Under the pieces are notes generated by a model. The model was given only the letters and a program-made list of their open reading frames with translations, was not told where the DNA came from and searched no databases. A stretch of 41,351 bases of DNA from a virus (taxonomy: Duplodnaviria > Caudoviricetes). A program made the position numbers and the translations under genes. Below are positions 5,029 through 35,197 of the stretch, piece after piece (the first letter of the stretch is position 1; each line of letters starts with the position of its first letter). The stretch is taken from IMG/VR virus record IMGVR_UViG_3300020402_000161, positions 1 to 41,351 of that record, one strand, 5' to 3'.

Positions 5029-5499
5029 TTATAGTTTACATTTCCTAAATACGTAACCCACGGTATCATAACCAAGAGCTTCGTACAATTTTTTCGTGTC
5101 TTCAGTCTGAACGCCCGTAGACGTAGCAGGTCTAACTTCACTAGCACCTTTATCAAATGCCCATTGCTGAAACCGTTTTATTAATCTAATTGCAGCCACG
5201 CCGCCACGTTTAGACTTATCGACAAACAGCAAACAATCATTCGCTACTAGGTCCTTACCGAAATAATACTCTGAAATGAACCCAACGTACATCGCAAATA
5301 TCTTATTTTCGCAGATTGCTATATCTGCAAAGTAAATCTCAGGATTAGCGAGCCAAGTTGCTGCCATTAAGTCTAATTTAGCGGGATCATAATCTAAATG
5401 ACTATAATTAGATTCTGCATGCATTTGTCGCCCTAATTCTACCATTGCTGGCAAATCATCTAGTTTAAATGGACGATACGTTATAATCCCCGAAGACAT
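5029..5499 (-). CDS. GNAT family acetyltransferase
   Basis: YRPFKLDDLPAM start, LFVDKSKRGGVAA acetyl-CoA motif A, LYEALGY. Start moved to ATG 5499, which has a GGAG SD. Confidence 0.85.
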   Translation of the reverse strand: MSSGIITYRPFKLDDLPAMVELGRQMHAESNYSHLDYDPAKLDLMAATWLANPEIYFADIAICENKIFAMYVGFISEYYFGKDLVANDCLLFVDKSKRGGVAAIRLIKRFQQWAFDKGASEVRPATSTGVQTEDTKKLYEALGYDTVGYVFRKCKL

Positions 5500-6781
5500 T
5501 GTACTCCTGTTCTGCTTGACGCGGTAATTTTGAAACATTCTTGTTAATACGGTCTCTGATGCCTAGAGCTAAGTACCTCATAGCGTCTGCGGGGTGCGAA
5601 GTCCAGTCATGCAGCGGCCTATCTCTAAATGTTTTATTCTTGTCGTCAAAATCTTTTCTATATTGTCTTAATGCTTCTATTAAGTGATTACATTTATTTT
5701 CGTCCATATAACAACGGGGTAATATAGACCTGACAGCTTCTATACCGTCTTCTATTCTTAAATTAGCTACAACTCTAAACCTTATGCCTAATTCTCTAGC
5801 AATCTCTATTCTAGATTTACCTGTACTTAGATCTCGTACCTTAATATCATGAGGAGCAAAGTGGTCTCCATAGACATATTCCTTCTCCCTAACGATTTTA
5901 ATGTAGTGAGCCAAACCTTCCCCTTGATTTTCATAATAATCTATTATACGTACTTCATTGTGGTGCATTTGGAAGAATATGATCACGGTCGAATCACCTA
6001 CACCCAAGTCCCACGACGTATGTACATCGAGTGTCGGTTCGTACGGGACCTTGGTTAGATGTTGGTCAGCTAACAACCTAGCCATGGCGTTACCATAATA
6101 CGAACCGACCAGCGGAGCATCAAATGAACAGAAGAATTCTTGTTGTATCATTTCCTCGGGCATACCTGCTGCACGTTCCTCATCAACAGCAGATATTGGG
6201 ATTGCCCGAGTGTCTTCGACAGATAAAACTTGTTGGAACCAAGATTCGTTTTTCTTAGCTATATTAAGAAGATCATATCCATGGTTTCTACCTCTAGCTG
6301 TATAAATGAATAATGCCCATCCTCCATTTTCAGCCAAGATGGGACGTATGTAATCCCAGGCACGAGGATCTTGCAGGGAATACTCTGAAAACACGACTCC
6401 AACAGGATTTGCTCCAACGAGTCTGTCGACATTATCGGTTCCCACAACTTGATAGATTGACCCATTCTTTAACGTTAATCTCATCTCCGTATTATTAATA
6501 GCTTCGTGCATTTGTTTGGGAAAGTGATCTAAAAACTTACGGCCGTCTCTAGTCATACCATCCCATGCAATCTTTCTTCCCTGGTTATAAGTAGGAAAGA
6601 GATGCCAGTATAGTCCTGGCCTTGTCATCGCAGAAACAGCACACCAATTTATGCTGCATAAGTCTTTACCGGCTCTTCGATGCCAAACGCAAACTGCTCT
6701 TTTTCCGCCGCCCTCAAAAAATTCCCACATGGGCATTTGATACGGACGAGGTTTCCAATCACTCGGTACTTGTATCTTCAT
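5465..6781 (-). CDS. terL: Terminase large subunit
   Basis: PRPYQ, HRRAGKD Walker A, VVFSEY Walker B variant, SWDLGVGDST and SHPADAMRY nuclease motifs. Confidence 0.93.
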   Translation of the reverse strand: MKIQVPSDWKPRPYQMPMWEFFEGGGKRAVCVWHRRAGKDLCSINWCAVSAMTRPGLYWHLFPTYNQGRKIAWDGMTRDGRKFLDHFPKQMHEAINNTEMRLTLKNGSIYQVVGTDNVDRLVGANPVGVVFSEYSLQDPRAWDYIRPILAENGGWALFIYTARGRNHGYDLLNIAKKNESWFQQVLSVEDTRAIPISAVDEERAAGMPEEMIQQEFFCSFDAPLVGSYYGNAMARLLADQHLTKVPYEPTLDVHTSWDLGVGDSTVIIFFQMHHNEVRIIDYYENQGEGLAHYIKIVREKEYVYGDHFAPHDIKVRDLSTGKSRIEIARELGIRFRVVANLRIEDGIEAVRSILPRCYMDENKCNHLIEALRQYRKDFDDKNKTFRDRPLHDWTSHPADAMRYLALGIRDRINKNVSKLPRQAEQEYNVFGDYNVSSI

Positions 6782-8972: not shown

Positions 8973-9347
8973 ATGGACGATAAAATCAAGTCAAAGATCG
9001 AGGCGTATACCGATTCGATAATGGATTTCGATCAAGATACTAAACACAGAGATGTGTATTCCATGTTCGAAGATATTTACAAACTAGGATTTTTCAATGG
9101 TCAACGGGAAGAACACGAATGGCCATCTACGGAACAGGAGTTATTCCCGGAAAAGTTTGAGTTTGAAGAGGGTGAGTATGGGAACATACAAAAGGAGGCG
9201 TTTATCTTTTTAGACGATCTAAAGGATTCTGGTGTGGTCAACATGTTTGGCGCAGCGGATAATATTATGAATGAGTTCGGTTATACTAGAGAACAATCTA
9301 AGAAATTACTCGCCGAGTGGATGGGTTCTCACTCATCACGTAAATAG
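8973..9347 (+). CDS. Early hypothetical protein
   Basis: Start moved to ATG 8973 (AGAAAGGAG SD). The C-terminal FLDDLKDSGVVNMFGA...EWM pattern is one I recall from other phage hypothetical proteins. Confidence 0.8.
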   Translation: MDDKIKSKIEAYTDSIMDFDQDTKHRDVYSMFEDIYKLGFFNGQREEHEWPSTEQELFPEKFEFEEGEYGNIQKEAFIFLDDLKDSGVVNMFGAADNIMNEFGYTREQSKKLLAEWMGSHSSRK

Positions 9348-9352
9348 TAACC

Positions 9353-9372
9353 ATGGGGACTTCGGTCCCCAT
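9353..9372 (+). terminator. cUUCGg hairpin, probable terminator
   Basis: ATGGGGAC-TTCG-GTCCCCAT just after the stop at 9347. The U tract is weak. Confidence 0.6.
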
Positions 9373-9380
9373 ATTACCTT

Positions 9381-9454
9381 TATTACTATATATGAATAAT
9401 TTATTATTTTACTTTTTTTATTGCCAAAATGCCAATCAATACAATATGTCAATA
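9381..9454 (-). repeat. Copy 2 of the inverted ~70-bp element (copy 1 at 7182-7254)
   Basis: Reverse complement reads TATTGACATATTGTATTGATTGGCATT...AAATTATTCATATATAGTAATA. Confidence 0.7.
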
Positions 9455-9522
9455 AATCCTTGAAATTATTAGATAAAAGTAAAGCAATAAATTATTGGTA
9501 TAAATAAATCCGCAAAAAACAT

Positions 9523-9551
9523 TGTACATATTCAGATTTATGCGGTAGTAT
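9523..9551 (+). promoter_or_regulatory. Sigma70-type promoter
   Basis: TGTACA-17 bp-TAGTAT, then AGAAAGGAG SD and ATG at 9576. Confidence 0.7.
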
Positions 9552-9575
9552 CGATAATTAAGAAAGGAGAATATT

Positions 9576-9752
9576 ATGAAAAATAAGTTACCAACGTACT
9601 TTGTACAAGCAGATTCATACACCGTTATTGAACCTGGCTTATCATATTTCTCTAAAGATCAGTCAATCACTCATCAAGAGTTATTAGACTATTTAGACTA
9701 TATGCCAATTGACTCTATCCAAGTATTACCGGAGTTGAGTAATGTCTCTTAA
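9576..9752 (+). CDS. Hypothetical protein, 58 aa
   Basis: Read by hand: MKNKLPTYFVQADSYTVIEPG...LSNVS*. Strong SD. Not in the ORF track. Confidence 0.7.
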   Translation: MKNKLPTYFVQADSYTVIEPGLSYFSKDQSITHQELLDYLDYMPIDSIQVLPELSNVS

Positions 9753-9975
9753 GGTAAAGGATATAGTTGACATATTGAAGGACCACGATCAGAGTGCCAA
9801 GATTAATATAGTAGTTAATCGTGCATTTCCTAGTCAGTCCTCAATATACGGTATTGTCGGTAAATCTGGCGAAGTTTATTTATGTCAGGATTTCGACTCA
9901 CGTCCACTCGATTTTGATCCTTGGTCCGAGTTAGACGTTCCCATTAACAAGGGATCACAGAAAGGAGAAAGTTAA
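9742..9975 (+). CDS. Hypothetical protein
   Basis: 77 aa with a GGAG SD. Confidence 0.7.
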   Translation: MSLKVKDIVDILKDHDQSAKINIVVNRAFPSQSSIYGIVGKSGEVYLCQDFDSRPLDFDPWSELDVPINKGSQKGES

Positions 9976-9976
9976 T

Positions 9977-10492
9977 ATGACAGATAGACTTTCAAGAGCG
10001 CAACAGGTCATCGATGATGGTCTCGAGCATCTAAAAACTAAATATAGTATGACTGAGTTACAAAACTTATTTTGTACTATAGTTAATACTCCGCAAGCAC
10101 CTAAGTTTTCGGATAAGACGGCAGCAGCCAAACGGGTCATTAAAATGGCTCAGGAAGTTGTACTCAATGAAGGTGACGATTACATTCCAGAGATCGATAC
10201 CGCAGAGGAGCCAAAGGTTGTAAAAACTAAGGGTCGTCCCAAAACTAAGCCTCGCGAGTATATTTTCATGCACAGAGATGATTCTCTGTTGCCGAAACAA
10301 GCGTCTGACATAGTAAAGCACATTGACTATGATGTGTGGATCGATGAGACTTTGTTAATGACTAAAATTAACGAACTCGCTGAGTCAGGTTATCTAAAAA
10401 CAAAACAAAAGCCATGGAGGATCTTCCAGTACTATCGTGCTAAGATGATCAATCAAGGTATCGTTAAAATGAGGAATGTCGCCGATGCGTAA
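9977..10492 (+). CDS. Hypothetical protein with a C-terminal putative winged-helix-like domain
   Basis: 171 aa, AGAAAGGAG SD. The C-terminal domain is paralogous to 11758-11982. Fold is inferred. Confidence 0.75.
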   Translation: MTDRLSRAQQVIDDGLEHLKTKYSMTELQNLFCTIVNTPQAPKFSDKTAAAKRVIKMAQEVVLNEGDDYIPEIDTAEEPKVVKTKGRPKTKPREYIFMHRDDSLLPKQASDIVKHIDYDVWIDETLLMTKINELAESGYLKTKQKPWRIFQYYRAKMINQGIVKMRNVADA

Positions 10493-11757: not shown

Positions 11758-11982
11758 ATGAAGTCAACCTTTATCTTTATAAAGGCAGCTGAGGGTGGTC
11801 TGGCTAAACAAGCCCAGGCCATTCTCAACATTGTAGAAGCAAAAGAGGAAATTAGCAAAGATAATCTTTTGCAGCAAATTGAGTTAGACGTTAAATCAAA
11901 ACAAAAAGCCCAGCGTCTACTTAGCTATTATAAAGGTCAACTAATAACCAAGGGCTTTATGGAAGAGAGAAAACATGGCTAA
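11758..11982 (+). CDS. Small putative winged-helix-like protein
   Basis: ATG 11758 after a GGAGG SD. Paralogous to the C-terminus of 9977-10492. Confidence 0.7.
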   Translation: MKSTFIFIKAAEGGLAKQAQAILNIVEAKEEISKDNLLQQIELDVKSKQKAQRLLSYYKGQLITKGFMEERKHG

Positions 11983-12811
11983 TGCGAGAGGAAAAAAGGT
12001 AGATACAACTTATCTATCTATTGACAACGCTGAAGAGCGTGGTTTCCTGCATCGAGATTACATTGCTCATTGTTTGAGATGGTCACATGTCGTTAAATTT
12101 TTAGGGACAAGCCAACGATACAAAACAGCAAGAGTCCTTGATGTAGGTTGTGGTAAAGAAATGCCACTATCAAAGTTGCTGCACTCATCACGTATGGGTA
12201 CAGCGTGGTATGGTGCGGTCGACGTTGCACCACTAACTACACCAGAGCAGTTTCGTAATGCATCATGGAAGCCACATAAGTTGTGGTCTAAGACTGATGT
12301 ATGCGATCTAGGTGTAGATGATTTTGAAGCAAAACCAAATGTGATTGTTTGCTTTGAAGTCGCTGAACATGTCGAACCTGATCATTGTAGACGTATGCTT
12401 GCTAAGTTTAGAGAGCTGATCGACGAAGATGGCAGAGTCTTTTTAAGTACACCATGCTATGACGAGCATGTCGGTGCTGCTGCTAATCATGTCAATGAAA
12501 TGACATATCAAGCATTTGGTGCTGTACTTGAGGACACAGGGTTCGAGATCGAAGGTCACTGGGGCACGTTTGCAAGTATGAAAGACTATAAGGACGAGCT
12601 AACGCCAGCACAACGAGAGGTGTGGGACCAGTTACGTGACTATTATGACACTAACTATCTTGCAACCGTTATGGCGCCGCTAGTACCACAACATAGTCGT
12701 AACGTACTATGGCAACTTAAACCAGGTAATGTTAACAGGCTATTCCCTGCACTCAAAGATGTAGAAGGCAGATGGGGATCGTCAGAAGAATGGGAGAAAC
12801 TATGTCCTTAA
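11975..12811 (+). CDS. Class I SAM-dependent methyltransferase, small-molecule type
   Basis: RVLDVGCG motif I, VIVCFEVAEHV, FLSTP. No DPPY/NPPY or C5-MTase PCQ/ENV motifs seen. Confidence 0.85.
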   Translation: MANARGKKVDTTYLSIDNAEERGFLHRDYIAHCLRWSHVVKFLGTSQRYKTARVLDVGCGKEMPLSKLLHSSRMGTAWYGAVDVAPLTTPEQFRNASWKPHKLWSKTDVCDLGVDDFEAKPNVIVCFEVAEHVEPDHCRRMLAKFRELIDEDGRVFLSTPCYDEHVGAAANHVNEMTYQAFGAVLEDTGFEIEGHWGTFASMKDYKDELTPAQREVWDQLRDYYDTNYLATVMAPLVPQHSRNVLWQLKPGNVNRLFPALKDVEGRWGSSEEWEKLCP

Positions 12812-13209
12812 TGAAAGACATAAAAGACTTTCATGAGCGTTACGAAATGGAGTACACGGGTGAACCCCGTGTGCTGCCATACGACTTGTTTCAATTTCGT
12901 ATTGAGTTTATGAAAGAGGAAATGATTGAATATATAAATGCCAGTGATTTTAAGAAAGGCAATATGGCCGATCAACTAGATGCACTGGTTGATTTAACTT
13001 ATGTAATTTTAGGTACAGCTTACCTGCAAGGCTTTGACTTTGATGAAGCATGGAGAAGAGTACATGCTGCTAATATGAAAAAGGTAAAAGGGGTTTCTAA
13101 GAGATCTGATCAATATGATGTTATCAAACCTGATGGCTGGGTTGCACCTGATTTGACTGACTTAGTACAAGTACAGCAGAGGGATCTGTTTGATGATAAT
13201 AATTCTTGA
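12802..13209 (+). CDS. MazG-like all-alpha NTP pyrophosphohydrolase
   Basis: EEMIEY, DALVDLTYV, VHAANMKK, KPDGW. Start moved to ATG 12802. Confidence 0.85.
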   Translation: MSLMKDIKDFHERYEMEYTGEPRVLPYDLFQFRIEFMKEEMIEYINASDFKKGNMADQLDALVDLTYVILGTAYLQGFDFDEAWRRVHAANMKKVKGVSKRSDQYDVIKPDGWVAPDLTDLVQVQQRDLFDDNNS

Positions 13210-14200
13210 TGGTCCAGATGGAACCGGTAAGACAACGTTAGCTAAGATGCTGCAAAAGAAATTAAAAGCAGACTACTTACATTTGACTTACCGCTGGAAA
13301 GAAAAGATCTTCGACTACCACACAGCGGCGATAAGGTTTGCAGCGAGGAAGAACAAACCTATCATACTAGACCGTTGGTGGCCTAGCGAAGCGATCTATG
13401 CAAAGGGCTACCGTGGAGGATCGGATTGGCCCTTGCAAGGTCGTATGTGTGACCGCATCGCTAGAAAGTTTGGCGCGGTGTATGTTTACTGCTTACCTGA
13501 GAGCGTTCAAGCTGCAGTGATACACCACGCCGAGTTAAAGGCCAAGCGGGAGGAGATGTACGATGACATAGCAGTCGTGGCTGATTTATATCTTAAGCTG
13601 TGGAATGGAGATAGTACACACCCAGACGGCGGGCAATACATTGATCAAGTAATAAGATCAGGTGGACTCAAGGATAGACCTGACTGCATCAAGTATACTA
13701 TCTCTGAGTATGGTCATTGTATGGATTTATTTGTAGAAAGAATTATAGAGAAAGCAAGAGCTTGGCGAGCATTACAATGGCAGCCAGTTCTTAAATATCA
13801 GAATTGGAATATGTTAGGTCATGCTCACAATAGTAAATACTTACTTGTTGGCGAGCAGGTTAATCCTAAGTTTAGAGAATTGTACTGGCCTTTTTACGAG
13901 TACAATCATAGCAGTTTGTTTGTAACACAGGCGCTGCATGAGCTTGGTTTAAGTGAGGATCTATTTATGTGGACAAATGTATTTAACCACGATGGATCTG
14001 ACAACCAACTGATAAGGCCATTGTTAGAGTACCGTAATTCATTAAGCGGTATAGATAATATGAGAGTTATTACGCTAGGTAAGAAAGCAGCATTTGCAAT
14101 AAGAGATGTAGACATACACGCTGAATTACCTCATCCAAGTTGGGTCAAGCGTTTTGGCTCAGTTAACATGGTGGAGGTATTTAAACATGCTATCAATTAA
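13190..14200 (+). CDS. dNMP kinase-like P-loop domain fused to a uracil-DNA glycosylase-like domain
   Basis: N-terminal IILDGPDGTGKTT and ILDRW..SE.IY. C-terminal LLVGEQ.NP, WTN, VITLGKKA, LPHPS. Confidence 0.75.
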   Translation: MMIIILDGPDGTGKTTLAKMLQKKLKADYLHLTYRWKEKIFDYHTAAIRFAARKNKPIILDRWWPSEAIYAKGYRGGSDWPLQGRMCDRIARKFGAVYVYCLPESVQAAVIHHAELKAKREEMYDDIAVVADLYLKLWNGDSTHPDGGQYIDQVIRSGGLKDRPDCIKYTISEYGHCMDLFVERIIEKARAWRALQWQPVLKYQNWNMLGHAHNSKYLLVGEQVNPKFRELYWPFYEYNHSSLFVTQALHELGLSEDLFMWTNVFNHDGSDNQLIRPLLEYRNSLSGIDNMRVITLGKKAAFAIRDVDIHAELPHPSWVKRFGSVNMVEVFKHAIN

Positions 14201-14966
14201 TGAACAATGGATTGCAATGTGTAGAGATATAGTCGAACATGGTGTCGATGTATTTCCACGTGGCGAACCAATAAAAGAGTTACGTTGCTATCAGTCGACT
14301 ATCGACATGGCATCACCAATACTAAGTATAAAAGAAAGAAACCTTGGCTATAAGTTTATGGCTGCAGAAGCATACTGGATTTTATCTGGTGACAATAGAG
14401 TATCAACCATTGCTCCATGGAGCGATATGATACGTGCATTTAGCGATGATGGTGTTACTTTCTTTGGTTCATACGGGCCAAAGATTATAGATCAGCTAGC
14501 CTATTGTGCTGGGATAATAAAAGATGACGAAGATACAAGGCAAGCAGTAATAAATATATGGCGTGAAAAACCAGGTCCAACACGAGATGTACCTTGTACT
14601 TTATCACTACAATTTATAGTGAGAGAGGGCAGGCTACATTGTATTGACACTATGAGATCGTCAGACACGTGGCTTGGTTGGCCTTATGATGTATTTAATA
14701 TGAGTATGATTACAAGATACTTATCTTTGTATATCAATGAGACAGGAGGTAAGCTCTACGACGTTGGTAACTTGTACTTGACTGCAGGCAGCCAACATAT
14801 ATATCAAAGAAATATGCCTAAGATTAGAGACATTATTACTAATCCCATGGCAATTGAAGGATTAAAAGGAGCTACCGTATATCAACCCAGCGAGTTTAAG
14901 ACTCGAGCAAATTTAATGGCATGGCTAGACGAACAAAGAAGATTAAGCAATGCGGCCACAGACTGA
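14187..14966 (+). CDS. Thymidylate synthase homologue, probably a dCMP C5-modifying enzyme
   Basis: DTRQA, DVPCT (catalytic Cys), MRSSDTWLGWPYD, SQHIY. Asp occupies the E. coli Asn177 position. Start moved to ATG 14187 (GGAGG SD). Confidence 0.85.
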   Translation: MLSINEQWIAMCRDIVEHGVDVFPRGEPIKELRCYQSTIDMASPILSIKERNLGYKFMAAEAYWILSGDNRVSTIAPWSDMIRAFSDDGVTFFGSYGPKIIDQLAYCAGIIKDDEDTRQAVINIWREKPGPTRDVPCTLSLQFIVREGRLHCIDTMRSSDTWLGWPYDVFNMSMITRYLSLYINETGGKLYDVGNLYLTAGSQHIYQRNMPKIRDIITNPMAIEGLKGATVYQPSEFKTRANLMAWLDEQRRLSNAATD

Positions 14967-15390
14967 CGAGTACTTCTTACAAATGGCGGCCTTGGTTGCG
15001 ACGCGTAGCACTTGCGTACGTAGATCTGTTGGTTGTGTGCTGGTTGATAGGCATCGCAGGGTTTTGGCTACTGGTTACAATGGTGTGGCTGCTGGTGTTA
15101 CCCATTGCATTGACGACCCTTGCGCTGGTGCTGGCGCCCGTAGTGGTACTGAGCTTGACAAGTGTGACGCAATACACGCTGAGCAAAATGCTATATTGCA
15201 GTGTAACTTTGTGGAGAAAATCGAAGTGGCATATATTACGGTGTCACCGTGTGTTACGTGCACAAAGCTACTCCTCAATACGGGGTGTAAGAAAATAGTA
15301 TTTATAGAAGAGTACGCCGATACATCGGCAAAGAAATTATGGAAAGGAGAATGGATCGAACATGGACCAATTAAGTTTTTTAAGACCTGA
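14950..15390 (+). CDS. dCMP deaminase family protein
   Basis: RSTC.RRSVG, ATGYNG, HAEQNA and SPCVTC zinc motifs. Confidence 0.92.
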   Translation: MRPQTDEYFLQMAALVATRSTCVRRSVGCVLVDRHRRVLATGYNGVAAGVTHCIDDPCAGAGARSGTELDKCDAIHAEQNAILQCNFVEKIEVAYITVSPCVTCTKLLLNTGCKKIVFIEEYADTSAKKLWKGEWIEHGPIKFFKT

Positions 15391-17242
15391 TTCTAACTGG
15401 CTACCACCAGAAAATCTACCTGATTTATCAGGGGCCAAGGTGATAGGTTTAGATGTTGAGACTTGCGATCCTAATCTATTAACAAATGGACCAGGAGGAG
15501 TAAGAAATGACGGTAAACTTGTGGGAATCTCAGTTGCAACGGACACTGGTTTTAAAGGATATTTCCCCATCGCTCACGAAGGGGGAGATAACCTTGACAA
15601 TAACGCTGTCCTCAGATGGGCCCGAGCTACGCTCGGAGGAACACAAACTAAGGTTGGAGCAAATCTGCTCTACGATCTTGAATGGCTTAGGCAAGCGGGG
15701 ATCGACGTTAAAGGAGATCTCAGAGATATACAAGTTGCCGAACCACTCTTAGATGAAGAGAAAAATGGAGGTTATAGTCTTGCTAACTTGTCTAAGTTTT
15801 ATCTTAACAAAGACAAAGATGAAACACTATTGCGAGAAGCAGCACAGGCATTTGGTGTCGATCCAAAGGGTGGTTTATGGAAACTACCTGCTAGGTATGT
15901 CGGCCCGTACGCAGAGGCTGATGCTGCTCTTCCACTAGAGATATATAAGTTGCAAGAGAAGAAAATAAAAGAGCAAGGCTTATGGGATATATTCGACCTC
16001 GAGTCTAGGTTACTTAATATGACACTAGATATGAGGTTTAAAGGTGTCAGAATAGATGTAGACAAAGCTGAACAATTAAATGAAAAGTTATTGAGTGAAG
16101 AAGCTGAGCTGCTTGTTGCATTGAGAAAGGAATGCGGTACCGTAGTAGAGCCATGGTCAGCAGACGAGCTAAGCAAGGCTTTTAATTCACTTGATATATG
16201 GTTCCCTCGTACTGCGAAGGGAAACCCTTCCTTCACTAGTGACTGGCTCAATAGTCATGAGCATCCGTTTGCTAAGAAGATCGCTGACTGGCGAAAGATA
16301 AATAAGATGAGGCGAGACTTTATTGAGGGTATCTGTCTCAAGCAGCAGCACAACGGACGTATTCATGCGCAGTTTCACGCGTTGAGGAAGGACGCTGATG
16401 GTACTCGGACGGGTAGGTTCTCCTCCTCTACCCCGAACTTGCAACAGATACCTGCAAGAGATGAGTACTGGGGTCCACTTGTACGTTCACTTTTCCTTCC
16501 TGATGAGGGCTGCAAGTGGGCCTGCTTAGATTATAGTCAGCAGGAACCTAGAGTCTTAGTACATTATGCTAACTTACGTAAGCTCAGTGGTGCAGACAAG
16601 GTTGTAGCAGAGTACAACGAGAATGCTGATACTGATTTCCACGAGATAGTTGCTGAGATGGCTGGCATACCTCGTAAACAAGCTAAGGTTATAAACCTTG
16701 GTATGTTTTATGGCATGGGTATTTATAGACTAGCACAACAACTTGATATGGAACAAGCAGACGCAAAGCCTATCTTTGAGCAGTATCATAGTCGTGTACC
16801 GTTTGTAAGACAACTCATGTATGAGTGTACACAATCAGCTAATAACAAAGGATATATAAGAACATTACTAGGTAGACATAGACATTTTGATTTGTTTGAG
16901 CCAGCTGATAGTAGAAACACATGGCCAAACAGAGAGACTCCATTAGGTAGAGATGCTGCAATGGAGGTATGGAAGGATAGACCATTACGTAGATCCTTCA
17001 CACATAAGGCACTTAATGCTTTGATACAAGGCAGCAGTGCTGATATGACAAAGAAAGCAATGCTTGATTTATATGATGATGGTATTATACCTCATATAAC
17101 GGTACATGATGAGCTTGATTTTTCCGTCACTGATGGGTTACAAGCCGATAAATATCGTGATATAATGGAACATTGTGTAGAATTAACCGTCCCACTTAAA
17201 GTTGATGTTGAGATAGGCAGCAACTGGGGTGACATAAAATAG
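15362..17242 (+). CDS. polA: Family A DNA polymerase with 3'-5' exonuclease
   Basis: Exonuclease LDVET, YDL, YAEAD. TGRFSS..PNLQQIP. Motif A DYSQQEPR, motif B KVINLGMFYG, motif C VHDE. Confidence 0.96.
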   Translation: MDQLSFLRPDSNWLPPENLPDLSGAKVIGLDVETCDPNLLTNGPGGVRNDGKLVGISVATDTGFKGYFPIAHEGGDNLDNNAVLRWARATLGGTQTKVGANLLYDLEWLRQAGIDVKGDLRDIQVAEPLLDEEKNGGYSLANLSKFYLNKDKDETLLREAAQAFGVDPKGGLWKLPARYVGPYAEADAALPLEIYKLQEKKIKEQGLWDIFDLESRLLNMTLDMRFKGVRIDVDKAEQLNEKLLSEEAELLVALRKECGTVVEPWSADELSKAFNSLDIWFPRTAKGNPSFTSDWLNSHEHPFAKKIADWRKINKMRRDFIEGICLKQQHNGRIHAQFHALRKDADGTRTGRFSSSTPNLQQIPARDEYWGPLVRSLFLPDEGCKWACLDYSQQEPRVLVHYANLRKLSGADKVVAEYNENADTDFHEIVAEMAGIPRKQAKVINLGMFYGMGIYRLAQQLDMEQADAKPIFEQYHSRVPFVRQLMYECTQSANNKGYIRTLLGRHRHFDLFEPADSRNTWPNRETPLGRDAAMEVWKDRPLRRSFTHKALNALIQGSSADMTKKAMLDLYDDGIIPHITVHDELDFSVTDGLQADKYRDIMEHCVELTVPLKVDVEIGSNWGDIK

Positions 17243-26209: not shown

Positions 26210-28276
26210 TTACGGTTGCATTTTATGCCAGTGCCTGAAGTGAGTATTGTTATTAGAACCATGCTGGTAGTAATAATTGTTACCAATCATCCAGATGCTA
26301 TTATCAGACATTCTAGCATACCAAGTCCAGTAACTATTATAGTAGTGACCAACAGACATAATCTCTTTAACATAAATATCTGTTGTTCCCGCGTAATGAA
26401 AACCACTAGCCAGTGAATGATTCCAAGGAGCAGGATATAGAAAAGCATTGGTGAAGTTATAACTACTTGTATTAGCTTGATAGTAATAAGCACTATGAAA
26501 ATAACCACCATTCCAAGTTCTATACTGCGTGTCTAAGAATATCCAGCCAGGCGCGTTATAACCACTACTTCGTATTGGAAATATTGCTTTAATATTATTC
26601 TTAGGGAAAGTTAGATTAGTTGTATTAATCGAACCGTCAGCAGATGATGTAACATTTTTAAGATAGTTAGTACCAAATGTAGTTGTCTGTGGATCTCTCA
26701 CACTTTGGTTAGCAGTAGTATTACCAACTAAATGTTGGCCTTGACCATTGTAACCCCAGATAGCTATTTGAAGTCCAGTGTTTGCTGCAACCGTATAAGT
26801 GTATGCATCACCTGGTCCATCTTGTCCTGATGGATTACCTAGGAAAGCACATAAACTTAATGTTGAAGCATTACCTGCAGAGTGTATAGCTGCAAAGTTT
26901 TCTGAACCACCAACCTGCACCCAAGCGGTTTGTGTTGTGGTATTACCAGTAGCACATTGACCTGCACCGTTGTTACCAATCGCGTATAGATCACCTGATG
27001 TATTAATATAATAACCACATGCAGCTACACCGCCGTTGTAGTAATATGTATTACAACACATAATCTGTGCAGCATTACTAACTGCAGTCATTTGAGCAGG
27101 AGATGTTCTAGAAGAACCAAGAGACGAGATACTATTTGTATTAGACCCTGTGTGATAAGCATTACCAGAAGAGTCTAAGAAATATGTATCACTATAACCA
27201 GCTGAGATTGAAACAATATTTGATAAACCAGTGATTCTTGTTGGCACGTTAGTATTAGTCGTATTACCTAGTCCATGAGAACCACTACCACCCCAACCAC
27301 AAACAAACACTCGTCCGTCGTGTGTTATAAAGAAGTAGTGAGTGTTACCCATACCTTGATAACCACCCGCGTCGTTTGTAGCAACACAAGCAATCTCACA
27401 AGTAATACTATTGTTAGTTGCGTCAGGTCCTAGATAAGGGTTTTTAACAAGTTGGTATCTATCGACCGTATCACCTAGTCCTAGCTGGCCAGAACCGTTT
27501 TCACCTTGCACAAACACATTACCCTTGTTTGTGAGCACGACCATACTATTTTCATTATACCAATGTCTTACAAAATACTCGCCATCTTTTAGACCACCAA
27601 ACTCTGTACTGATCGGCATACAATGTTCTACTGATTCATTGTAAGAGCCTGAGCCTATAGCACCTATACCATAGTGAGAATAACCTTTAGTCATTAACTC
27701 GTGGCTGCTATTTAACCAGACCATTTTAGTATATCTATTGTGCATACGTTCACGGTCACGTTTAACTGGTCCACACTCAGGATTAAAGAATGGATCTATT
27801 GGAATCCAGTCTGCACTTGCACCTGACTTACCATTATATTGTGCAAGCCAAGGTCGTTTACCATCTGTTCCTGGTATTGTAGAGTTTGTTGTGTTAGCAT
27901 AAAGTGGCACGTTGGAATCACATATATCCATACTTTGCCAACCGTCTGCTGTACCCCAACCAACAGCCGTTGAGCTAGTTGCTTTAAGTACTTGACCTGC
28001 ATTACCGATAGCTAATCTTGCAACCGTACTACCGTCATGCGTTAATAAATCACCTGCTGTAGTCAGAGTATTACTTGTACCCTGAGCCATTAAGTTCCAA
28101 TGAGTAGTGTTAGTACTCGCTGGAGCACCGGCAGCAGTACCGGTTTTTGATGTAGCGTTTACGTAAACCCATGAATCACCATTGTAATAAACAACGTCAT
28201 CAGCTTCGTAGGTTGTACCGGTTGCAAAAGTACCTTTCCACGTAAACTTTATTTTTCCTATGTCTAAAGTCGCCAT
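26210..28276 (-). CDS. RCC1/BLIP-II beta-propeller repeat protein, putative receptor-binding tail component
   Basis: Repeats GENGSGQLGLGDT, GWGGSGSHGLGNT, GNNGAGQCATGNT, GYNGQGQHLVGNT. N-terminal LDIGKIKFTWKG...YEADDVVYYNG module. Confidence 0.8.
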   Translation of the reverse strand: MATLDIGKIKFTWKGTFATGTTYEADDVVYYNGDSWVYVNATSKTGTAAGAPASTNTTHWNLMAQGTSNTLTTAGDLLTHDGSTVARLAIGNAGQVLKATSSTAVGWGTADGWQSMDICDSNVPLYANTTNSTIPGTDGKRPWLAQYNGKSGASADWIPIDPFFNPECGPVKRDRERMHNRYTKMVWLNSSHELMTKGYSHYGIGAIGSGSYNESVEHCMPISTEFGGLKDGEYFVRHWYNENSMVVLTNKGNVFVQGENGSGQLGLGDTVDRYQLVKNPYLGPDATNNSITCEIACVATNDAGGYQGMGNTHYFFITHDGRVFVCGWGGSGSHGLGNTTNTNVPTRITGLSNIVSISAGYSDTYFLDSSGNAYHTGSNTNSISSLGSSRTSPAQMTAVSNAAQIMCCNTYYYNGGVAACGYYINTSGDLYAIGNNGAGQCATGNTTTQTAWVQVGGSENFAAIHSAGNASTLSLCAFLGNPSGQDGPGDAYTYTVAANTGLQIAIWGYNGQGQHLVGNTTANQSVRDPQTTTFGTNYLKNVTSSADGSINTTNLTFPKNNIKAIFPIRSSGYNAPGWIFLDTQYRTWNGGYFHSAYYYQANTSSYNFTNAFLYPAPWNHSLASGFHYAGTTDIYVKEIMSVGHYYNSYWTWYARMSDNSIWMIGNNYYYQHGSNNNTHFRHWHKMQP

Positions 28277-29183: not shown

Positions 29184-31715
29184 TTAGTCTCTTACTCCTT
29201 CAAACAATCTATCGCCACCACCGTATGGTATCTTCGACGATGGAGGTATCAAGAATCGTTGATTATTTTCCCTCATTATACGCTGTTCTGTCCGTAAAAG
29301 ATACCCCGGACTTACACTTTCCTGCAACTGGTACAAAAACAAGTAATCAAGCGCCATTCTAGTGTAGAACAAGTTTATGAACGGGGTGTTGTTTTTTGCT
29401 AAATCTAACAGGTCTGCTGTTGGATTTTCGCCTTTTCTAATAGTCGATATAATATATTGTAAATCATTTATCTGACCTAGTGTAGGACCTGCCAAGGTAG
29501 ATAAGAAACCGCCGCCGATTCTACTACCCTCGCCAAAGAAGAAATCTCCATAAATACCTAGACCTCCACCTTGCACCATAGCAGCAGATAGTATTTTAGC
29601 TATATCACCAGGGCTAGACCAATCTTCTATAGTTCTTGGTGTTCTGCCTTTTAATACATCTTTAGCATACATAGCGCCGTAACCCATAACGGTAGTAGCA
29701 ACCATAAGTTGAGCTAGTCCCATTATATCGGCCTTGCCATTTGCCTGTCCGTATATTTCTCTACCAAGACCACGTCTAATCATTGTTATTGGAAATGATT
29801 TAAACTGCATCATCATTCTAGCTATCTCACCCCAGAATGTACCAGCAACCGTACCTTGGTTCATGATAGCACGTTCTGCAGCACCAGGCATTGGTATACC
29901 ATGATCAGCTCTATCCATGTAGAATGAATCTAATTTTTGCATTAGTTCATCTTTAGCATCAGATATAGCTCTTGGTCCTTGCTTTACTTTTCCTCGTCTA
30001 GTTAGATACTCTTTGATAGCAGCATCATCTACTTCATCAATGAAATCAGTGGTAATATAATCATTACCATTTGCTTTCCTGTTTCCATGTTGTCTATAAA
30101 AGTCCCAATCAATTTCATCTATCCCATATTGTTTAAAAACATTTTTTAGTCTATCACCTAATTGATTAAATGATTTATTTCTTGCTACACCTAGTCCATT
30201 AGCCATAATCAATGCCATACCAGTACGGTGTGAATCGTTCCACCATGACATTAAATTAAGTTTAAAAAACTTTTGTTGCATCTTAGCAAACCTACCAGGT
30301 ATATGGTCATTAGCATGGAACCTGGATAATAGGTCACCGGTAATACCATCAAAGCCTATTCCTAATGCTCTTGCAATCTGTCTTTGTTCTGCATTTCCTC
30401 GGCCGCGAAATAAATTAGCAAAGGCATTTGTATATGCAGCAAAGAGAGGTTTACCTTGATACCTTAATTCAGCTGCTTGGTTTGCAATATCAGTTACAGA
30501 GGATATAGTAGCACCACCTAGTTTTGATACGTTGGCAATAGCACGAGCAATAGCTCCTACCCTGGCAACCGTAACTCTAGCAGGTATCTGTGTTGTGCCA
30601 TCAAGCTCTGCCATGATATTATCGATAGTTCGACTTTTAAAATCATCTGTAATTTTAAAGTCACCTTTTTTCTGTGCTTTGTCTGCATACATTTTTTTAA
30701 GTTTAGTGATCATAGCCTCAGGATTAGGGCCAAGACCTTTCATCAAAGCAGTACCTCTAGCTAAGTGCTGCAGACCTTGTACAACACCTTCTCGTATATC
30801 GCCAGTACCAAACGTTCCATTGTATTCCATAAAATCTTCTGCAGATTTAAAATGTAATACTCTTTCTTGACTCATACGTCTGCCAAGATTTTTTGGTCCT
30901 TTAAATCCATTTAAGTGATTAGTTTCGCCACCTTGAAATTTTCTATGGATCCCAGAGGCTAGGGCCTTGTAAGCAGACTCTAAGAATTTTTTAGGATCTT
31001 CACCTTTAAATGTTGATTCATCAAGTTTATCTTTAATAAAACCTACCCACTCGTCCATACCAGCTTTTCTTATTGTCTGGATATTATGTGATTGTCTCAT
31101 TATATAACCAGCACGTGGCCTGATAAATGATCCTGCCTTATTAGCATTCTTAACAGCAATCATTTGTGATTCATGTAGAATATTAGCAATACGACGAGCT
31201 GCTGCATTTTTAGTTATACCAGGATTACCGTCAGGTTTTATTTCCCACATTTCTTTTGCGATGTCTACGTCAATCTTACCACTATTATATAATTGTAGAT
31301 CCCCTGGGTTTTGTTCTAGCTTATTAATAATTCTACCAATATACTTGTTACCTAGTGATTTAGCAGATACATCAATACTTAATTTACTTTTATAATTAGC
31401 ATTAATAGATCCAGCTAGTAGTGCTTTGATACCTTCAAATGGATTATCAAAGCTATCGATAAACCTCATGGCTCTTACCTCGGCCATAGCAGAAAGAGCT
31501 TTGTTTCTTTTTTCTATAGTAGCAGCTAAGATCTCATCATTTAATTTAGATTGTATATGCTCTTGTAGTTTAGCATCTAAGTTATCTATATTTTTACTAC
31601 CGGCAGCATCAATAAAATCATTGATCTCTTCCAGTATATCCATAGCTGCAGTATCATCAATCTTTCCTTCTGCTGCTGCATTCTTAATAACACCAATACA
31701 TTTTTTAATACTCAT
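29184..31715 (-). CDS. Large internal virion (ejection) protein
   Basis: About 843 aa from ATG 31715 (ATGA overlap). QFKSFP and QGGGLGIYGDF motifs. Last gene of the core-protein block. Confidence 0.75.
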   Translation of the reverse strand: MSIKKCIGVIKNAAAEGKIDDTAAMDILEEINDFIDAAGSKNIDNLDAKLQEHIQSKLNDEILAATIEKRNKALSAMAEVRAMRFIDSFDNPFEGIKALLAGSINANYKSKLSIDVSAKSLGNKYIGRIINKLEQNPGDLQLYNSGKIDVDIAKEMWEIKPDGNPGITKNAAARRIANILHESQMIAVKNANKAGSFIRPRAGYIMRQSHNIQTIRKAGMDEWVGFIKDKLDESTFKGEDPKKFLESAYKALASGIHRKFQGGETNHLNGFKGPKNLGRRMSQERVLHFKSAEDFMEYNGTFGTGDIREGVVQGLQHLARGTALMKGLGPNPEAMITKLKKMYADKAQKKGDFKITDDFKSRTIDNIMAELDGTTQIPARVTVARVGAIARAIANVSKLGGATISSVTDIANQAAELRYQGKPLFAAYTNAFANLFRGRGNAEQRQIARALGIGFDGITGDLLSRFHANDHIPGRFAKMQQKFFKLNLMSWWNDSHRTGMALIMANGLGVARNKSFNQLGDRLKNVFKQYGIDEIDWDFYRQHGNRKANGNDYITTDFIDEVDDAAIKEYLTRRGKVKQGPRAISDAKDELMQKLDSFYMDRADHGIPMPGAAERAIMNQGTVAGTFWGEIARMMMQFKSFPITMIRRGLGREIYGQANGKADIMGLAQLMVATTVMGYGAMYAKDVLKGRTPRTIEDWSSPGDIAKILSAAMVQGGGLGIYGDFFFGEGSRIGGGFLSTLAGPTLGQINDLQYIISTIRKGENPTADLLDLAKNNTPFINLFYTRMALDYLFLYQLQESVSPGYLLRTEQRIMRENNQRFLIPPSSKIPYGGGDRLFEGVRD

Positions 31716-34700
31716 GACGCACCTCTCACACAAACAGCCGCAGCTTTAGTTGCTTCGTATAAGTCTTTAGCATCTGCAATATCTTGATCTGCTTTAGCAT
31801 TAAAATCCTCGATTTCTTTTGTTAGACTTTTTATATACTTAGGATCTGCATTAGCAAACTCAGCCTTGATTAGCTCTGCTATTTCTTCTAGCTCTCCGTC
31901 AGCTGCTGCTTGTTCTTTAGGTTTATTAGGTGTTAGCTCTGCTTTTATATTTTGTTGATCACCTAATTGTAAGTCAGGATCTGCCATGTCTACATCATTG
32001 ACAGCGTTAGATGGTTGTACCTTATACTTCTCTGCTATCTTGATTTGCTCTGTAGCATTAATTTTTTTAACTAGTTTTTCTCCAGGTGGCAATGCATCAA
32101 GTTCTATAATAACACCTTTTTGAGGTGACTTAGTAGCTTTCTTAACAACATAAGTCAAGCCATGAGGTAATATTATTTCTGACTCTGCTGTGCCAAATGA
32201 AAAATGTTTACCCTTACCAGCATAAAGTACTGGCATACCTTTAGGTAGATTTATTCTAACTCTTGTTTCTGTAGGATAACTACCAAAATTAAATGCTTTG
32301 TTTCTGTATAAACTAGTTGAAGTAAAACCATCTAGTTGTACTTCACCACCTATCATTGCGTTAGCTGTGTGTATATCAGAACCATCAACTAAGCTAAGTC
32401 CCTTAATACCATTGAAAACATCTTTTGGTACGCCGCCACGATATACTCGCATTTGCTTAGTAAGTTTTGTTTTATTAATAGCATCTGATAAATCTTTTAA
32501 ATGAGCATCGATAGCTTGTTTTGCTTGTGCTACACTACCAGCAGCATCAGTATAACCTGCTTTTGTCTTTTGTTCTGTAGGTACATATTTAGAATATTGT
32601 AGTATGGCTGCATCATTTGCTTGGCCACGTAAATATGAATTAATCCAGCCATAACTAGATTGTGTATAATCTTTAATAATAGCTTTTTGTGCAGCAGTAA
32701 GTTTTACATCACCTTGCTCTGCCATTTTATCTAGCGCTTTTTGTGCAGCAGCAAAACTATTAGATGCTATAAAACCTTTTTTAGTAGTTGTAGTTTGTTC
32801 TACTCTAGCAAATTTTTCTGCTAAAGCAGTTCGTCTGTTCCCCAATGCAGTCATTAATTCTTTTTTATATTTAGCAGGCATACCTACAACATCGATAACA
32901 TTAGCAATCTCAGAAGTAGATACACTAAATATTCTTGCTGCTGATTGTTGATGTAATTTCTGTAACGTAGCAGGATCAATAGAGCCAAATACTTTTGCAG
33001 CATTTGGATTTTTATTTTTATCCAGGAATGTGGTCATCTCATCTATAGCATCAGATAATTTTTTAGGCTGACCTTGTGCTCTAAATAATAGTGCGCCACC
33101 TGGATCTATTCTTAGTAAAGTACCGTCTGGCATTTGCATCATATTAAAATTAGGTGCATTACCAACTACGTCCCAGTTACCGAGGTACATGTCAACTAAA
33201 GCATGACCTGCAAATTGTTCTCTTACACCAGCAGGTAATTTTACAAAATCGTCAGGCGTAATCATTTTAGCACCTGGAATTATTTTTGATGCAACACCGA
33301 CTATATTTCCTTGTGCATCACCGACTAATCTAGTCAACGGGAATGGTACACCAAACTCGCGGTAGAGCGTAGCAGCAATAAATTCGTTTTTTGCAAGTTC
33401 AACGTTTTCTGGATATTTAACGTAAAACTCATCACCTGTGGCCATGTCTTTGTAGAAGCCACCTTTTTGTGTACCTGCTTGCGTACCGGTTTGTTGTAAG
33501 TTATCATTTAATATTTGCTCGTCAAAATATGGTTTTTGACCTTCAACATCATTTAAAAAATCTCCTTCATCAAATTTAGAGTATTCGTCAAGTATAGCAT
33601 TTTTACCCCCTTTTATATTACTACTAAATAATGAGATAGCCGGGTCACCTTGAAACATCTTAGCAACTTCATAGCCTGGTGCAACAACCACATTATTTTG
33701 ATTCATTTTAGGATTAAAGTCTACACCCTCAATACTCATAACATGGTGAATAGTACCATCCTGTAATTTAACACTACCTGTGTAGTTAAGATCAGCAGCA
33801 GCCATGTCGACACCATGCATAAGCAATGACCTATGCATCTTCTCCCCTATGACTGCTGTCTCGCCAGGAGCTCCTGCCATTGAGTCACTATCAAATAATC
33901 TTAATGACTCTCCTTGCTTTTGTCTTACAACTACAAAGTCACCATTCTTCGTCTTAATCCTAAATGCTAATTTTTGCTCTAGACTTTTTGCTTTTGCTGT
34001 AGCTACGGCTTCTTCGTATTCTTTTGTTGCCATAGCTCTTTTTAATTTAACTGAGGAAAGTTTAATTCCTTTTTCACCTTGCCTAATTAATGCTAATGAC
34101 TCATCGCCATTTTTATGAGGTGCATATTCTTTTGTAGTACCTGGTTGGTGTGGTTGTGTTGAATCACCTTTAGTTACATTTTGTCTTGGCTGATTAGGTT
34201 GATCACCTGGTTTACCACTATTACCTTCAATATTATTTTTAGGTGTCGTAAATGTAGGTTCGTCTGAACCGTGAGCTATAGGAGTTACTTCTACATTTTT
34301 ACCTTCAGCACTTTGTTTAACTGCAGTATCAAATGCAGCTAAGTGACGTCTAGCTTTAATATGTCTTACGCCATCGGCCAATGCACCAAACTTCATGTGC
34401 AAACCGCCGCCGGCTAATGTACCAAAAGCTATATTAAAAAATGATTGTACTGCGCCATATTGTGCTTGCTCTTGTTGTGCAGCACTATAGATAAGTGGCT
34501 CAACAGCTACAGAACCATAGAAACCAGCCATACCACCGGTTACTAATCGTCCAGCTGATCTACCAGCAAATGACTTAGCTCCTTGTATTCCTAATGCTGA
34601 TAATACTTTTGCACCGCCAAGTGGTGGTATAAACATTAATGGTAAAGTTACTGGGTCTAGCAAAGCCATACCCATTTCAATACCCATACCTTTCCAGAAC

Positions 34701-35197
34701 TGAGAACCGTAAGCCTTATCTAAAACATAATTAAATTTTATTTCTTCTTCTTTTCTTTGTTTTAAAAGATATGCTTCAAGATTAGATACTCGCTCATCAA
34801 ATTTAAGATGACCATCAACGCCGTACTTTTCGTTGGCTTCTTCAGGTTCAATAAATTTTATTTCTTCTTCGTTAAAACCTGGGTAATTTCTTTCTAGATC
34901 TTCAGAAGTAAAAGGCAGTTTAGCAGCACCATATCTAGCTGAACCATGTCTAGCTATTTTTCTTTTACCATGCTGAGCAACTACATTGTCGTAATCTCGA
35001 CGTTGTTCATAACTAGATTCTGTGTAAGTCCTAATATTATTTATCTCTAACATACGATCGATAGAGTTACCACCAGTAAATCTACTACCACGTATTTGCG
35101 CCATATCAGTAACAGAGTCACCATGCGCAGAAAGCATGTCAAGACCCATTACGTCATTTACAGCACTATTGTTAGTTTGATTAAATGTTAACTTCAT
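31712..35197 (-). CDS. Internal virion protein carrying kinase-like and ADP-ribosyltransferase domains
   Basis: 1161 aa. Hydrophobic Gly-rich N-terminal region. Kinase-like motifs GTQKGGFY, YVK, NE, DMYLGNWD, RIDPGG. ART motifs YT...Y..IN.YLR, VYRG, FTSTS, ESEIILP. Confidence 0.82.
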   Translation of the reverse strand: MKLTFNQTNNSAVNDVMGLDMLSAHGDSVTDMAQIRGSRFTGGNSIDRMLEINNIRTYTESSYEQRRDYDNVVAQHGKRKIARHGSARYGAAKLPFTSEDLERNYPGFNEEEIKFIEPEEANEKYGVDGHLKFDERVSNLEAYLLKQRKEEEIKFNYVLDKAYGSQFWKGMGIEMGMALLDPVTLPLMFIPPLGGAKVLSALGIQGAKSFAGRSAGRLVTGGMAGFYGSVAVEPLIYSAAQQEQAQYGAVQSFFNIAFGTLAGGGLHMKFGALADGVRHIKARRHLAAFDTAVKQSAEGKNVEVTPIAHGSDEPTFTTPKNNIEGNSGKPGDQPNQPRQNVTKGDSTQPHQPGTTKEYAPHKNGDESLALIRQGEKGIKLSSVKLKRAMATKEYEEAVATAKAKSLEQKLAFRIKTKNGDFVVVRQKQGESLRLFDSDSMAGAPGETAVIGEKMHRSLLMHGVDMAAADLNYTGSVKLQDGTIHHVMSIEGVDFNPKMNQNNVVVAPGYEVAKMFQGDPAISLFSSNIKGGKNAILDEYSKFDEGDFLNDVEGQKPYFDEQILNDNLQQTGTQAGTQKGGFYKDMATGDEFYVKYPENVELAKNEFIAATLYREFGVPFPLTRLVGDAQGNIVGVASKIIPGAKMITPDDFVKLPAGVREQFAGHALVDMYLGNWDVVGNAPNFNMMQMPDGTLLRIDPGGALLFRAQGQPKKLSDAIDEMTTFLDKNKNPNAAKVFGSIDPATLQKLHQQSAARIFSVSTSEIANVIDVVGMPAKYKKELMTALGNRRTALAEKFARVEQTTTTKKGFIASNSFAAAQKALDKMAEQGDVKLTAAQKAIIKDYTQSSYGWINSYLRGQANDAAILQYSKYVPTEQKTKAGYTDAAGSVAQAKQAIDAHLKDLSDAINKTKLTKQMRVYRGGVPKDVFNGIKGLSLVDGSDIHTANAMIGGEVQLDGFTSTSLYRNKAFNFGSYPTETRVRINLPKGMPVLYAGKGKHFSFGTAESEIILPHGLTYVVKKATKSPQKGVIIELDALPPGEKLVKKINATEQIKIAEKYKVQPSNAVNDVDMADPDLQLGDQQNIKAELTPNKPKEQAAADGELEEIAELIKAEFANADPKYIKSLTKEIEDFNAKADQDIADAKDLYEATKAAAVCVRGAS

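Follow-up and report, generated by a model that had tools for sequence, protein, structure and literature searches.

A phage gene cassette predicted to make 5-hydroxymethylcytosine and possibly to cap it by O-methylation

Which base does a phage build into its DNA when a thymidylate-synthase homologue shares a gene cluster with nucleotide-pool enzymes, a DNA polymerase, and a methyltransferase? The question is raised by a cluster in IMG/VR record IMGVR_UViG_3300020402_000161, a complete virus record of 41,351 bp (completeness 100) that was analysed at its full length and is called the window here. Six open reading frames (ORFs), all on the + strand, overlapping and intact, span positions 11975–17242. 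The ORF calls, Pfam, and a match to the uracil-DNA glycosylase (UDG) fold agree with the families named in a first-pass annotation made from the DNA letters, namely a class I S-adenosylmethionine (SAM) methyltransferase, a MazG-like pyrophosphatase, a fusion of a deoxynucleoside monophosphate (dNMP) kinase with a UDG, the synthase homologue, a deoxycytidine monophosphate (dCMP) deaminase, and a family A polymerase (PolA). Judged by its synthase residues, the cassette very likely makes 5-hydroxymethylcytosine (hmC). The methyltransferase probably acts on hmC, and we give about even chances to the full proposal that the cassette replaces cytosine with hmC and that the methyltransferase then caps it to 5-methoxymethylcytosine instead of the glucosylated base of T4.

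The synthase (259 aa, 14187..14966, +; Pfam Thymidylat_synt) carries a dCMP hydroxymethylase signature. An Asp at E. coli position 177 goes with the choice of dCMP (passages of PMC8670742), the mark of a hydroxymethylase is an Asp three residues ahead of the catalytic Cys (passages of PMC6400193), and 5-hydroxy-dCMP synthases are marked by Asn at 169, all tested hydroxylases being D169N (sections of PMC13326640). The window enzyme has E61, Y96, D134 (T4 D145), C137, D160 (E. coli D169), and D168 (T4 D179). In the alignment, D134 is part of D134-V-P-C137, D160 of RSSD, and D168 of YDVF, which places Asp at E. coli positions 143, 169, and 177 (D/D/D). D168 is the Asp that had been noted before; it takes the place of the Asn177 expected of a canonical ThyA or a deoxyuridine monophosphate (dUMP) hydroxymethylase, and D134 that of the acidic residue (Asp or Glu) before the Cys. 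From D168, D134, and D160 together, the synthase is predicted to make 5-hydroxymethyl-dCMP, and the signature argues against deoxythymidine monophosphate (dTMP), the 5-methylcytosine (5mC) of phage Xp12, and the 5-hydroxycytosine of RB69 as products. The proposal of a pre-replicative pathway to a C5-modified cytosine is supported. As the residue is D169 and not N169, the acceptor is predicted to be 5-hydroxymethyl, so that one half of the earlier alternative "5-hydroxy or 5-hydroxymethyl" is kept and the other dropped. The best PDB match is the CMP hydroxymethylase MilA (E 9e-20). In the tree, the synthase groups with those of Pseudoxanthomonas phage PW916 and pelagiphage HTVC119P (support 98/98), apart from T4 gp42; it is not classed as a gp42 orthologue, and its function is predicted to be that of gp42.

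Two cultured phages, PW916 and Stenotrophomonas phage AXL3 (gp27–31), have five genes of the cluster in unchanged order; the AXL3 synthase is 43–48% identical to that of the window. AXL3 DNA, which has a G/C modification to which no base was assigned, withstood 35 of 37 enzymes, and the two that cleaved it recognize AT-only sites (AATT, TTAA) (sections of PMC7504290). In the relevant passages of Flodman et al. (PMC7653180), KpnI cuts the 5mC DNA of Xp12 completely and AhdI cuts it as well (completely according to the text, partially according to the table); XmnI and XbaI cut the hmC DNA of T4gt partially and glucosylated T4 DNA not at all, and 5-hydroxymethyluracil (hmU) DNA is cut by GC-site enzymes and still by MluCI and MseI. 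We counted 13 KpnI, 14 AhdI/Eam1105I, 21 XmnI/PdmI, and 1 XbaI sites in AXL3, and all four enzymes were resisted. Because hmU DNA is open to GC-site enzymes, the AXL3 modification appears to lie on C or G, and the AXL3 annotation contains no deazaguanine genes. The resistance to KpnI and AhdI makes 5mC unlikely, and that to XmnI and XbaI weakly favours something beyond hmC.

Three other products can be weighed on this basis. An Xp12-type 5mC pathway, with the deaminase making deoxythymidine triphosphate (dTTP) from 5-methyl-dCTP, would fit the neighbourhood of Yang et al. (D177 synthase, deaminase, PRA-PH, and PolA, in the passages concerned), but the Xp12 synthase (22% identical to that of the window) has Asn at 143, keeps a Trp, and has a dihydrofolate reductase (DHFR) neighbour, whereas the window enzyme has Asp at 143. 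Pfam searches, with Xp12 as positive control, found no DHFR in the complete genome, a negative that rests on these searches since tblastn with the Xp12 protein alone is insensitive. Together with the resistance of AXL3 to KpnI and AhdI/Eam1105I, both of which cut Xp12 DNA, this makes the Xp12-type pathway highly improbable. It is extremely unlikely that the synthase makes 5-hydroxy-dCMP and that 5-methoxycytosine is the product: UbiG-like enzymes methylate ring hydroxyls, and RB69 gp48 is also acidic at position 143, but the tested hydroxylases carry the D169N exchange, and the window synthase and all of its full-length counterparts discussed below keep the Asp. There is equally little chance that the cluster only supplies dTTP to canonical DNA. 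The AXL3 authors read gp27–29 as thymidylate synthesis (sections of PMC7504290), but the synthase has D177 and D143, and AXL3 carries a separate ThyX and restriction-resistant DNA.

What does the methyltransferase (278 aa, 11975..12811, +; Pfam Methyltransf_23) add to such a pathway? The co-occurrence analysis across phage genomes that the first-pass annotation had proposed compared 90 methyltransferase-anchored loci (the best 80 of 245 viral ones and all 10 from prokaryote genomes) and 80 loci anchored on a synthase (the best 80 of 98); redundancy reduces the 133 gene pairs to 64 at 90% and to 36 at 70%, and row L049 was left out of alignment A1. A synthase is present in 72 of the 90 methyltransferase loci. 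All 70 full-length partner synthases (2 more are cut) have D143/D169/D177, a count that comes without a base rate over all phage synthases. Among the 18 loci without a synthase, 15 end at most 2.3 kb downstream, two are cut upstream, and the last, L179 (G001:C5), is a 306-kb contig in a metagenome-assembled genome, where the methyltransferase and a D/D/D synthase lie 58 kb apart. The L179 contig also encodes many short repeated N-terminal motifs and resembles a large virus.

The partner synthases fall in six clades, including T4 gp42-like ones. Some are 46–50% identical to T4 gp42, and two of these, in loci L142 and L167, lie directly upstream of the methyltransferase. In T4-like loci the methyltransferase directly follows the gp42-like gene (50% identical to gp42), which is the place of beta-gt in T4. 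The methyltransferases of L123 and L142 share 64% and 51% identity with that of the window, but the corresponding synthases share only 21% and 17%, respectively. A methyltransferase tree of 28 rows, a quick tree with long branches flagged, requires at least four switches of partner and rejects co-descent (p-AU 1.3e-11). Such repeated changes of partner suggest that the gene follows the chemistry and not the lineage.

A further locus with the window's synthase clade, L019, has an ORF (1167–2174) similar to T4 beta-glucosyltransferase (BGT) in the methyltransferase slot. In the ESM Atlas it matches T4 BGT with a feature score of 0.96 and a TM of 0.71; the likeness went undetected in pairwise BLAST against T4 BGT and in sequence searches of Pfam, NCBIfam, and PDB, the link coming from the ESM Atlas alone. 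The ORF is a candidate divergent BGT-like enzyme and a candidate new hmC glycosyltransferase. The 148 flanking ORFs (+ strand, 150–600 aa, at most 3 kb away) were reduced to 78 representatives, none of which was found to be a glycosyl- or carbamoyltransferase. In the window, no glycosyltransferase was found among the 19 scanned ORFs >200 aa, one of which, an 837-aa ORF among the virion genes, is matchless; this agrees with the earlier remark that none is visible, with the caveat for Pfam-based negatives that Pfam missed the L019 ORF. The linkage to D/D/D synthases and the swap in this slot strengthen the earlier suggestion that the methyltransferase performs the final step. In L182, a SAM synthetase gene (9312–10115) lies between methyltransferase and synthase, which fits a high SAM demand.

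The methyltransferase family is mostly viral: 10 loci were found among 185,579 prokaryote genomes, and the five of these that were inspected have phage-like or large-virus-like gene surroundings. At E<=0.001 the family comprises 1,242 proteins, possibly including distant methyltransferases. Invariant residues are R27, D28, H32, R35, GxG, E128-x-x-E131-H132, S158-T-P, and N171-H172-x-x-E175, and the ExxEH and STP motifs, R27, and H172 are kept in 64 of 64 dereplicated members. E128, E131, H132, and STP align to the RNA methyltransferase HEN1, in which the Glu and His residues of the active site bind a metal that activates a hydroxyl. H172, beyond the stretch aligned to HEN1, is a putative counterpart of the distal His H860, which completes the metal site there. 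The conserved active-site residues of HEN1 are E796, E799, H800, and H860, and small-molecule methyltransferases are said to have a carboxylate like that of E796 only rarely (passages of PMC1397878). The protein is not a member of the known families: it scores 14.5 bits against the HEN1 NCBIfam cut-off of 340 and 27.9 against the UbiG cut-off of 103, and lacks RNA-binding domains. A phmmer search for HEN1 with a short motif gave no match. The (D/N/S)PP(Y/F/W) motif IV of N4mC and N6mA methyltransferases is replaced by FEVAEHV. A structural model (pLDDT 92) has a class I fold near ChlM, CmoM, and HEN1, and profile matches include a lysine methyltransferase, UbiG, an N-methyltransferase, and HEN1. 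Our best inference from the HEN1/UbiG-like ExxEH site is O-methylation.

Several findings weigh against the capping of hmC as 5-methoxymethylcytosine, the first of which concern the acceptor. The structural neighbours are mixed O-, N-, and carboxyl-methyltransferases (ChlM Z 18.8, CmoM Z 18.4, HEN1 Z 17.3), N-methyltransferases follow at Z ~16, and the single best profile match is the lysine methyltransferase, so that the acceptor atom is not fixed by these comparisons. Methylation of hmC at another atom, most likely to N4-methyl-5-hydroxymethylcytosine, would share all of the linkage evidence and has the N-methyltransferases ToxA, cap N7, and CNMT among the neighbours. It is nevertheless clearly unlikely, as ExxEH stands in place of the amino-methylation motif (D/N/S)PP(Y/F) and the replacement of the gene by a glucosyltransferase-like one in L019 speaks for a hydroxyl. 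In the T4-like loci L142 and L167, which also hold nucleotide-sugar genes, a sugar could be the acceptor. On the side of the synthase, the Ser/Thr-x-Tyr signature (T4 S94, Y96) reads Gly94-Ser95-Tyr96, with the Tyr kept, the Ser one place off, and the published residue Ser94 replaced by Gly; this Ser is also missing in the hydroxymethylase-annotated enzymes of Churro (Yuavirus; Gly) and Goe10. The AXL3 methyltransferase is only ~31% identical to that of the window, and AXL3 DNA was digested for 30 min compared to 1 h with excess enzyme, which makes its resistance beyond that of hmC weak evidence. Methyltransf_23 is only nominally enriched in the modified contigs of MetaGPA (27 vs. 1436, p 0.006, corrected p 1).

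The linkage itself is also one-way. Eighteen of the 80 synthase loci have no methyltransferase, 14 of them with ample flank and four cut upstream, and no methyltransferase was found in the nine such records searched whole, some of which are fragments, with AXL3 as a positive control. The methyltransferase is thus dispensable for this synthase clade, and phages with the synthase alone may keep plain hmC or carry another cap. The L019 protein had no match in five records (four without methyltransferase, and AXL3), a search without positive control. These observations bear on the alternative that the DNA contains plain hmC and that the methyltransferase has a different substrate required by hmC phages, such as a protein, an RNA end, or a by-product. 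It would accommodate the occurrence of the synthase clade without the methyltransferase, the HEN1 likeness, which could mean an RNA substrate, and the AXL3 resistance, which is mostly that of T4gt DNA. We consider it unlikely because it leaves unexplained why the methyltransferase tracks hmC synthases of six clades through repeated switches, why it comes right after T4 gp42-like genes, and why a BGT-like gene takes its place in L019.

Phages with such synthases and other neighbours were also encountered. The cultured SAR11 pelagiphages HTVC119P (L001:6487-7771) and HTVC200P (L002) encode a kinase and a D143/D169/D177 synthase annotated as "thymidylate synthase", with neither a methyltransferase nor a DHFR match, so that their DNA likely contains hmC. 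Votkovvirus L093, a relative of these phages, has a synthase nearer to that of Xp12 at the same place. In Agathobaculum phage AB434P2 (L091:2850-5582), a D/D/D synthase lies between two unannotated ORFs that look GT-B glycosyltransferase-like by eye, and the locus also has a cytidylyltransferase-like and a kinase-like gene. Finally, six gut-type loci (L055:10171-10920, L056, L060, L063, L065, and L067) lack the methyltransferase and carry an HtrL_YibB-family gene downstream of the synthase, possibly another hmC cap; their UDG domain is without the HP motif.

The remaining genes of the cluster would serve the nucleotide pool and replication. The MazG-like/PRA-PH pyrophosphatase (135 aa, 12802..13209, +; Pfam PRA-PH) has Deinococcus DR2231 and 3nl9 as its nearest solved relatives and is a putative dCTPase/dUTPase. 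The kinase–UDG fusion (13193..14200, +; AlphaFold model, pLDDT 96) combines a part of ~residues 1–195 with a match to the YorR/thymidylate kinase fold (Pfam Thymidylate_kin, below cut-off) and a predicted UDG fold (~residues 196–336) with the motifs GEQ, WPF, N, and HP. The UDG-like half has no Pfam match in the window protein; its model aligns with UdgX, T. maritima UDG, TthUDG, and the phiLo PolA UDG (Z 10.5–11.4, rmsd 2.4–2.9, 120–134 aligned residues). In addition to the fold, G221, N263, and H315-P316, which we take to belong to motif A, to be the uracil-reading Asn, and to provide the motif B His, are kept in at least 90% of 60 sequences, placing this half in UDG family 4/5. On the model, the kinase would phosphorylate the modified dCMP and the UDG half would remove stray uracil.

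The Zn dCMP deaminase (146 aa, 14950..15390, +; Pfam dCMP_cyt_deam_1) bears on how likely a uracil derivative is. It is closest to the canonical dCMP deaminases of S. mutans and T4 (E 9e-19 and 2e-14) and far from the PBCV-1 type nearest to mSCD-B5 (E 1e-4). In T4, the deaminase Cd supplies dUMP to Td. The window genome contains no ThyX, and by analogy the deaminase most likely sends surplus dCMP to dUMP for dTMP synthesis by the host. The 5mC-selective deaminase trait (mSCD) is described as polyphyletic in the available portion of bioRxiv 10.1101/2024.12.05.627091. If the deaminase acted on the modified dCMP, thymine would be replaced by hydroxymethyl- or methoxymethyl-uracil. The window genome has neither ThyX nor, in a Pfam scan, a second thymidylate synthase homologue; 7 of 90 tested synthase-linked deaminases gave 5hmdU in vivo (same portion of the preprint), and the AXL3 digest is compatible since MluCI and MseI still cut hmU DNA. 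Against this replacement stand the canonical neighbours of the deaminase, the ThyX of AXL3, and the many methyltransferase loci from which the deaminase is missing. As AXL3 also resists enzymes with GC-only sites, the deaminated uracil derivative offered by the first-pass annotation is very unlikely.

The family A polymerase with 3'-5' exonuclease (626 aa, 15362..17242, +; Pfam DNA_pol_A) must, by inference, accept the modified dCTP. Its best NCBIfam match is the DpoZ-1 model at 333 bits, below the cut-off of 500; DpoZ-1 is the polymerase clade of aminoadenine phages, and no PurZ was found among the scanned window ORFs. In many relatives PolA lies elsewhere or is of another type, which makes it no fixed part of the module.

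In the proposed pathway, the MazG-like enzyme would break dCTP and dUTP down to monophosphates, and the synthase would convert dCMP and methylene-tetrahydrofolate to 5-hydroxymethyl-dCMP. The methyltransferase would methylate the OH of the hydroxymethyl group at its probable metal site, with the free nucleotide a slightly likelier substrate than DNA in view of the small-molecule fold, the acidic pI of 5.8, and its place among pool enzymes. The kinase would phosphorylate the product and PolA incorporate the modified dCTP, while the deaminase would supply the thymidylate synthase of the host with dUMP and the UDG domain would clear stray uracil. The modification may block type II restriction, and the masked OH may protect from hmC-directed nucleases. 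Whether podo-, sipho-, T7-like, and T4-like phages all build genomes with 5-methoxymethylcytosine, with a dedicated, HEN1-like and metal-dependent O-methyltransferase as an add-on to any pathway that makes hydroxymethyl-dCMP, is in our view close to a toss-up. If true, one more base would join the few that replace cytosine completely, the modification of AXL3 would be explained, and glucosylation or carbamoylation of hmC would have an alternative, a minimal hypermodification that needs no sugar genes and in which a single methyl group could shield hmC from the nucleases directed at it. Sequencing might also gain a reagent for distinguishing 5hmC from 5mC, in the form of an O-methyltransferase specific for 5hmC.

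The genome around the cluster is podovirus-like and encodes portal, capsid, tail, and internal virion proteins (profile scans of the window ORFs), and 11 bases are common to both ends of the record. No close cultured phage was found, the best PolA matches being 45–48% identical. Half or more of the cluster words occur in 17 of 24 sequencing runs among those listed, all marine or seawater. One independent seawater contig extends over the entire cluster, from which it differs by 45 substitutions and by no gap. Of 68 variants, 40 were listed and 23 checked: all six listed in the methyltransferase are synonymous, and 5 of 17 checked in the other four small genes are non-synonymous. RNA contigs of one metatranscriptome match parts of the methyltransferase, kinase, and PolA genes, although such contigs cannot show transcription. 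The starts at 12802, 13193, and 14187 were picked by ribosome-binding-site spacing; scans for promoters (69 vs. 58.8 +/- 9.4) and terminators (10 vs. 8.9) did no better than shuffles. Elsewhere, an internal virion protein (1161 aa, 31712–35197, -) has an ADP-ribosyltransferase domain at residues 830–1027 (PF03496, E 5e-24) and probably reaches the bacterial host by injection, as T4 Alt does. A GNAT acetyltransferase gene (phrog_1249, 5029–5538, -) between terminase and portal probably plays no part in base modification, given its place within the structural module, and a tail-fibre-like protein of 688 aa (26210–28276, -) has RCC1 repeats.

Compared to known systems, the core of the cluster has a precedent. 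MetaGPA modified-cytosine neighbourhoods (Yang et al. eLife 2021, PMC8670742; bioRxiv 10.1101/2024.12.05.627091; passages of both) combine a D177 synthase, dCMP deaminase, PRA-PH, and PolA as found here. The pathway as a whole, a candidate new one in the first-pass annotation, is therefore not new; the SAM methyltransferase is the new part. The word "methyltransferase" has no match in the eLife main text, and the family is not discussed in the accessible portion of the preprint, whose supplement may hold synthases of this clade, nor mentioned in the available part of a later paper citing Iyer et al. 2013 (NAR). A search extending to neither subscription journals nor bioRxiv supplements found no paper on 5-methoxymethylcytosine as a DNA base or on this family. 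The hmC carbamoyltransferase described in the MetaGPA passages moves a small group to the hmC hydroxyl and also accepts 5hmdCTP, a likeness in logic, although the window cluster contains no carbamoyltransferase.

T4 follows the same pathway logic with the gp56 dCTPase/dUTPase, gp42, the gp1 kinase, the Cd deaminase, and alpha- and beta-glucosyltransferases, and the gp42 residues E60, Y96, D145, C148, R168, S169, D171, D179, H216, and Y218 are kept in the window synthase. However, this enzyme is of another clade and ~24% identical over 78 residues, its pyrophosphatase and UDG-fused kinase neighbours belong to different families from those of T4, the cluster has a PolA as polymerase, and a methyltransferase fills the final slot in place of a glucosyltransferase. 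Xp12 shares the pre-replicative modified dCMP and a D177 synthase beside a deaminase and a MazG-like gene, but has N143, a DHFR beside the synthase, and no homologue of the window methyltransferase. In the 5-hydroxycytosine arabinosylation of RB69 and DLP3 (sections of PMC13326640), the synthases are likewise acidic at 143 and have D177, and a group is ether-linked to the C5 oxygen, as proposed here; those synthases carry D169N and need sugar genes, whereas the window has D169 and no sugar genes. AXL3 differs in being a siphovirus that encodes ThyX and whose PolA is distant. With HEN1 and UbiG, finally, the methyltransferase shares a class I fold, ExxEH in motif IV, and STP in motif VI, but it forms a separate viral family.

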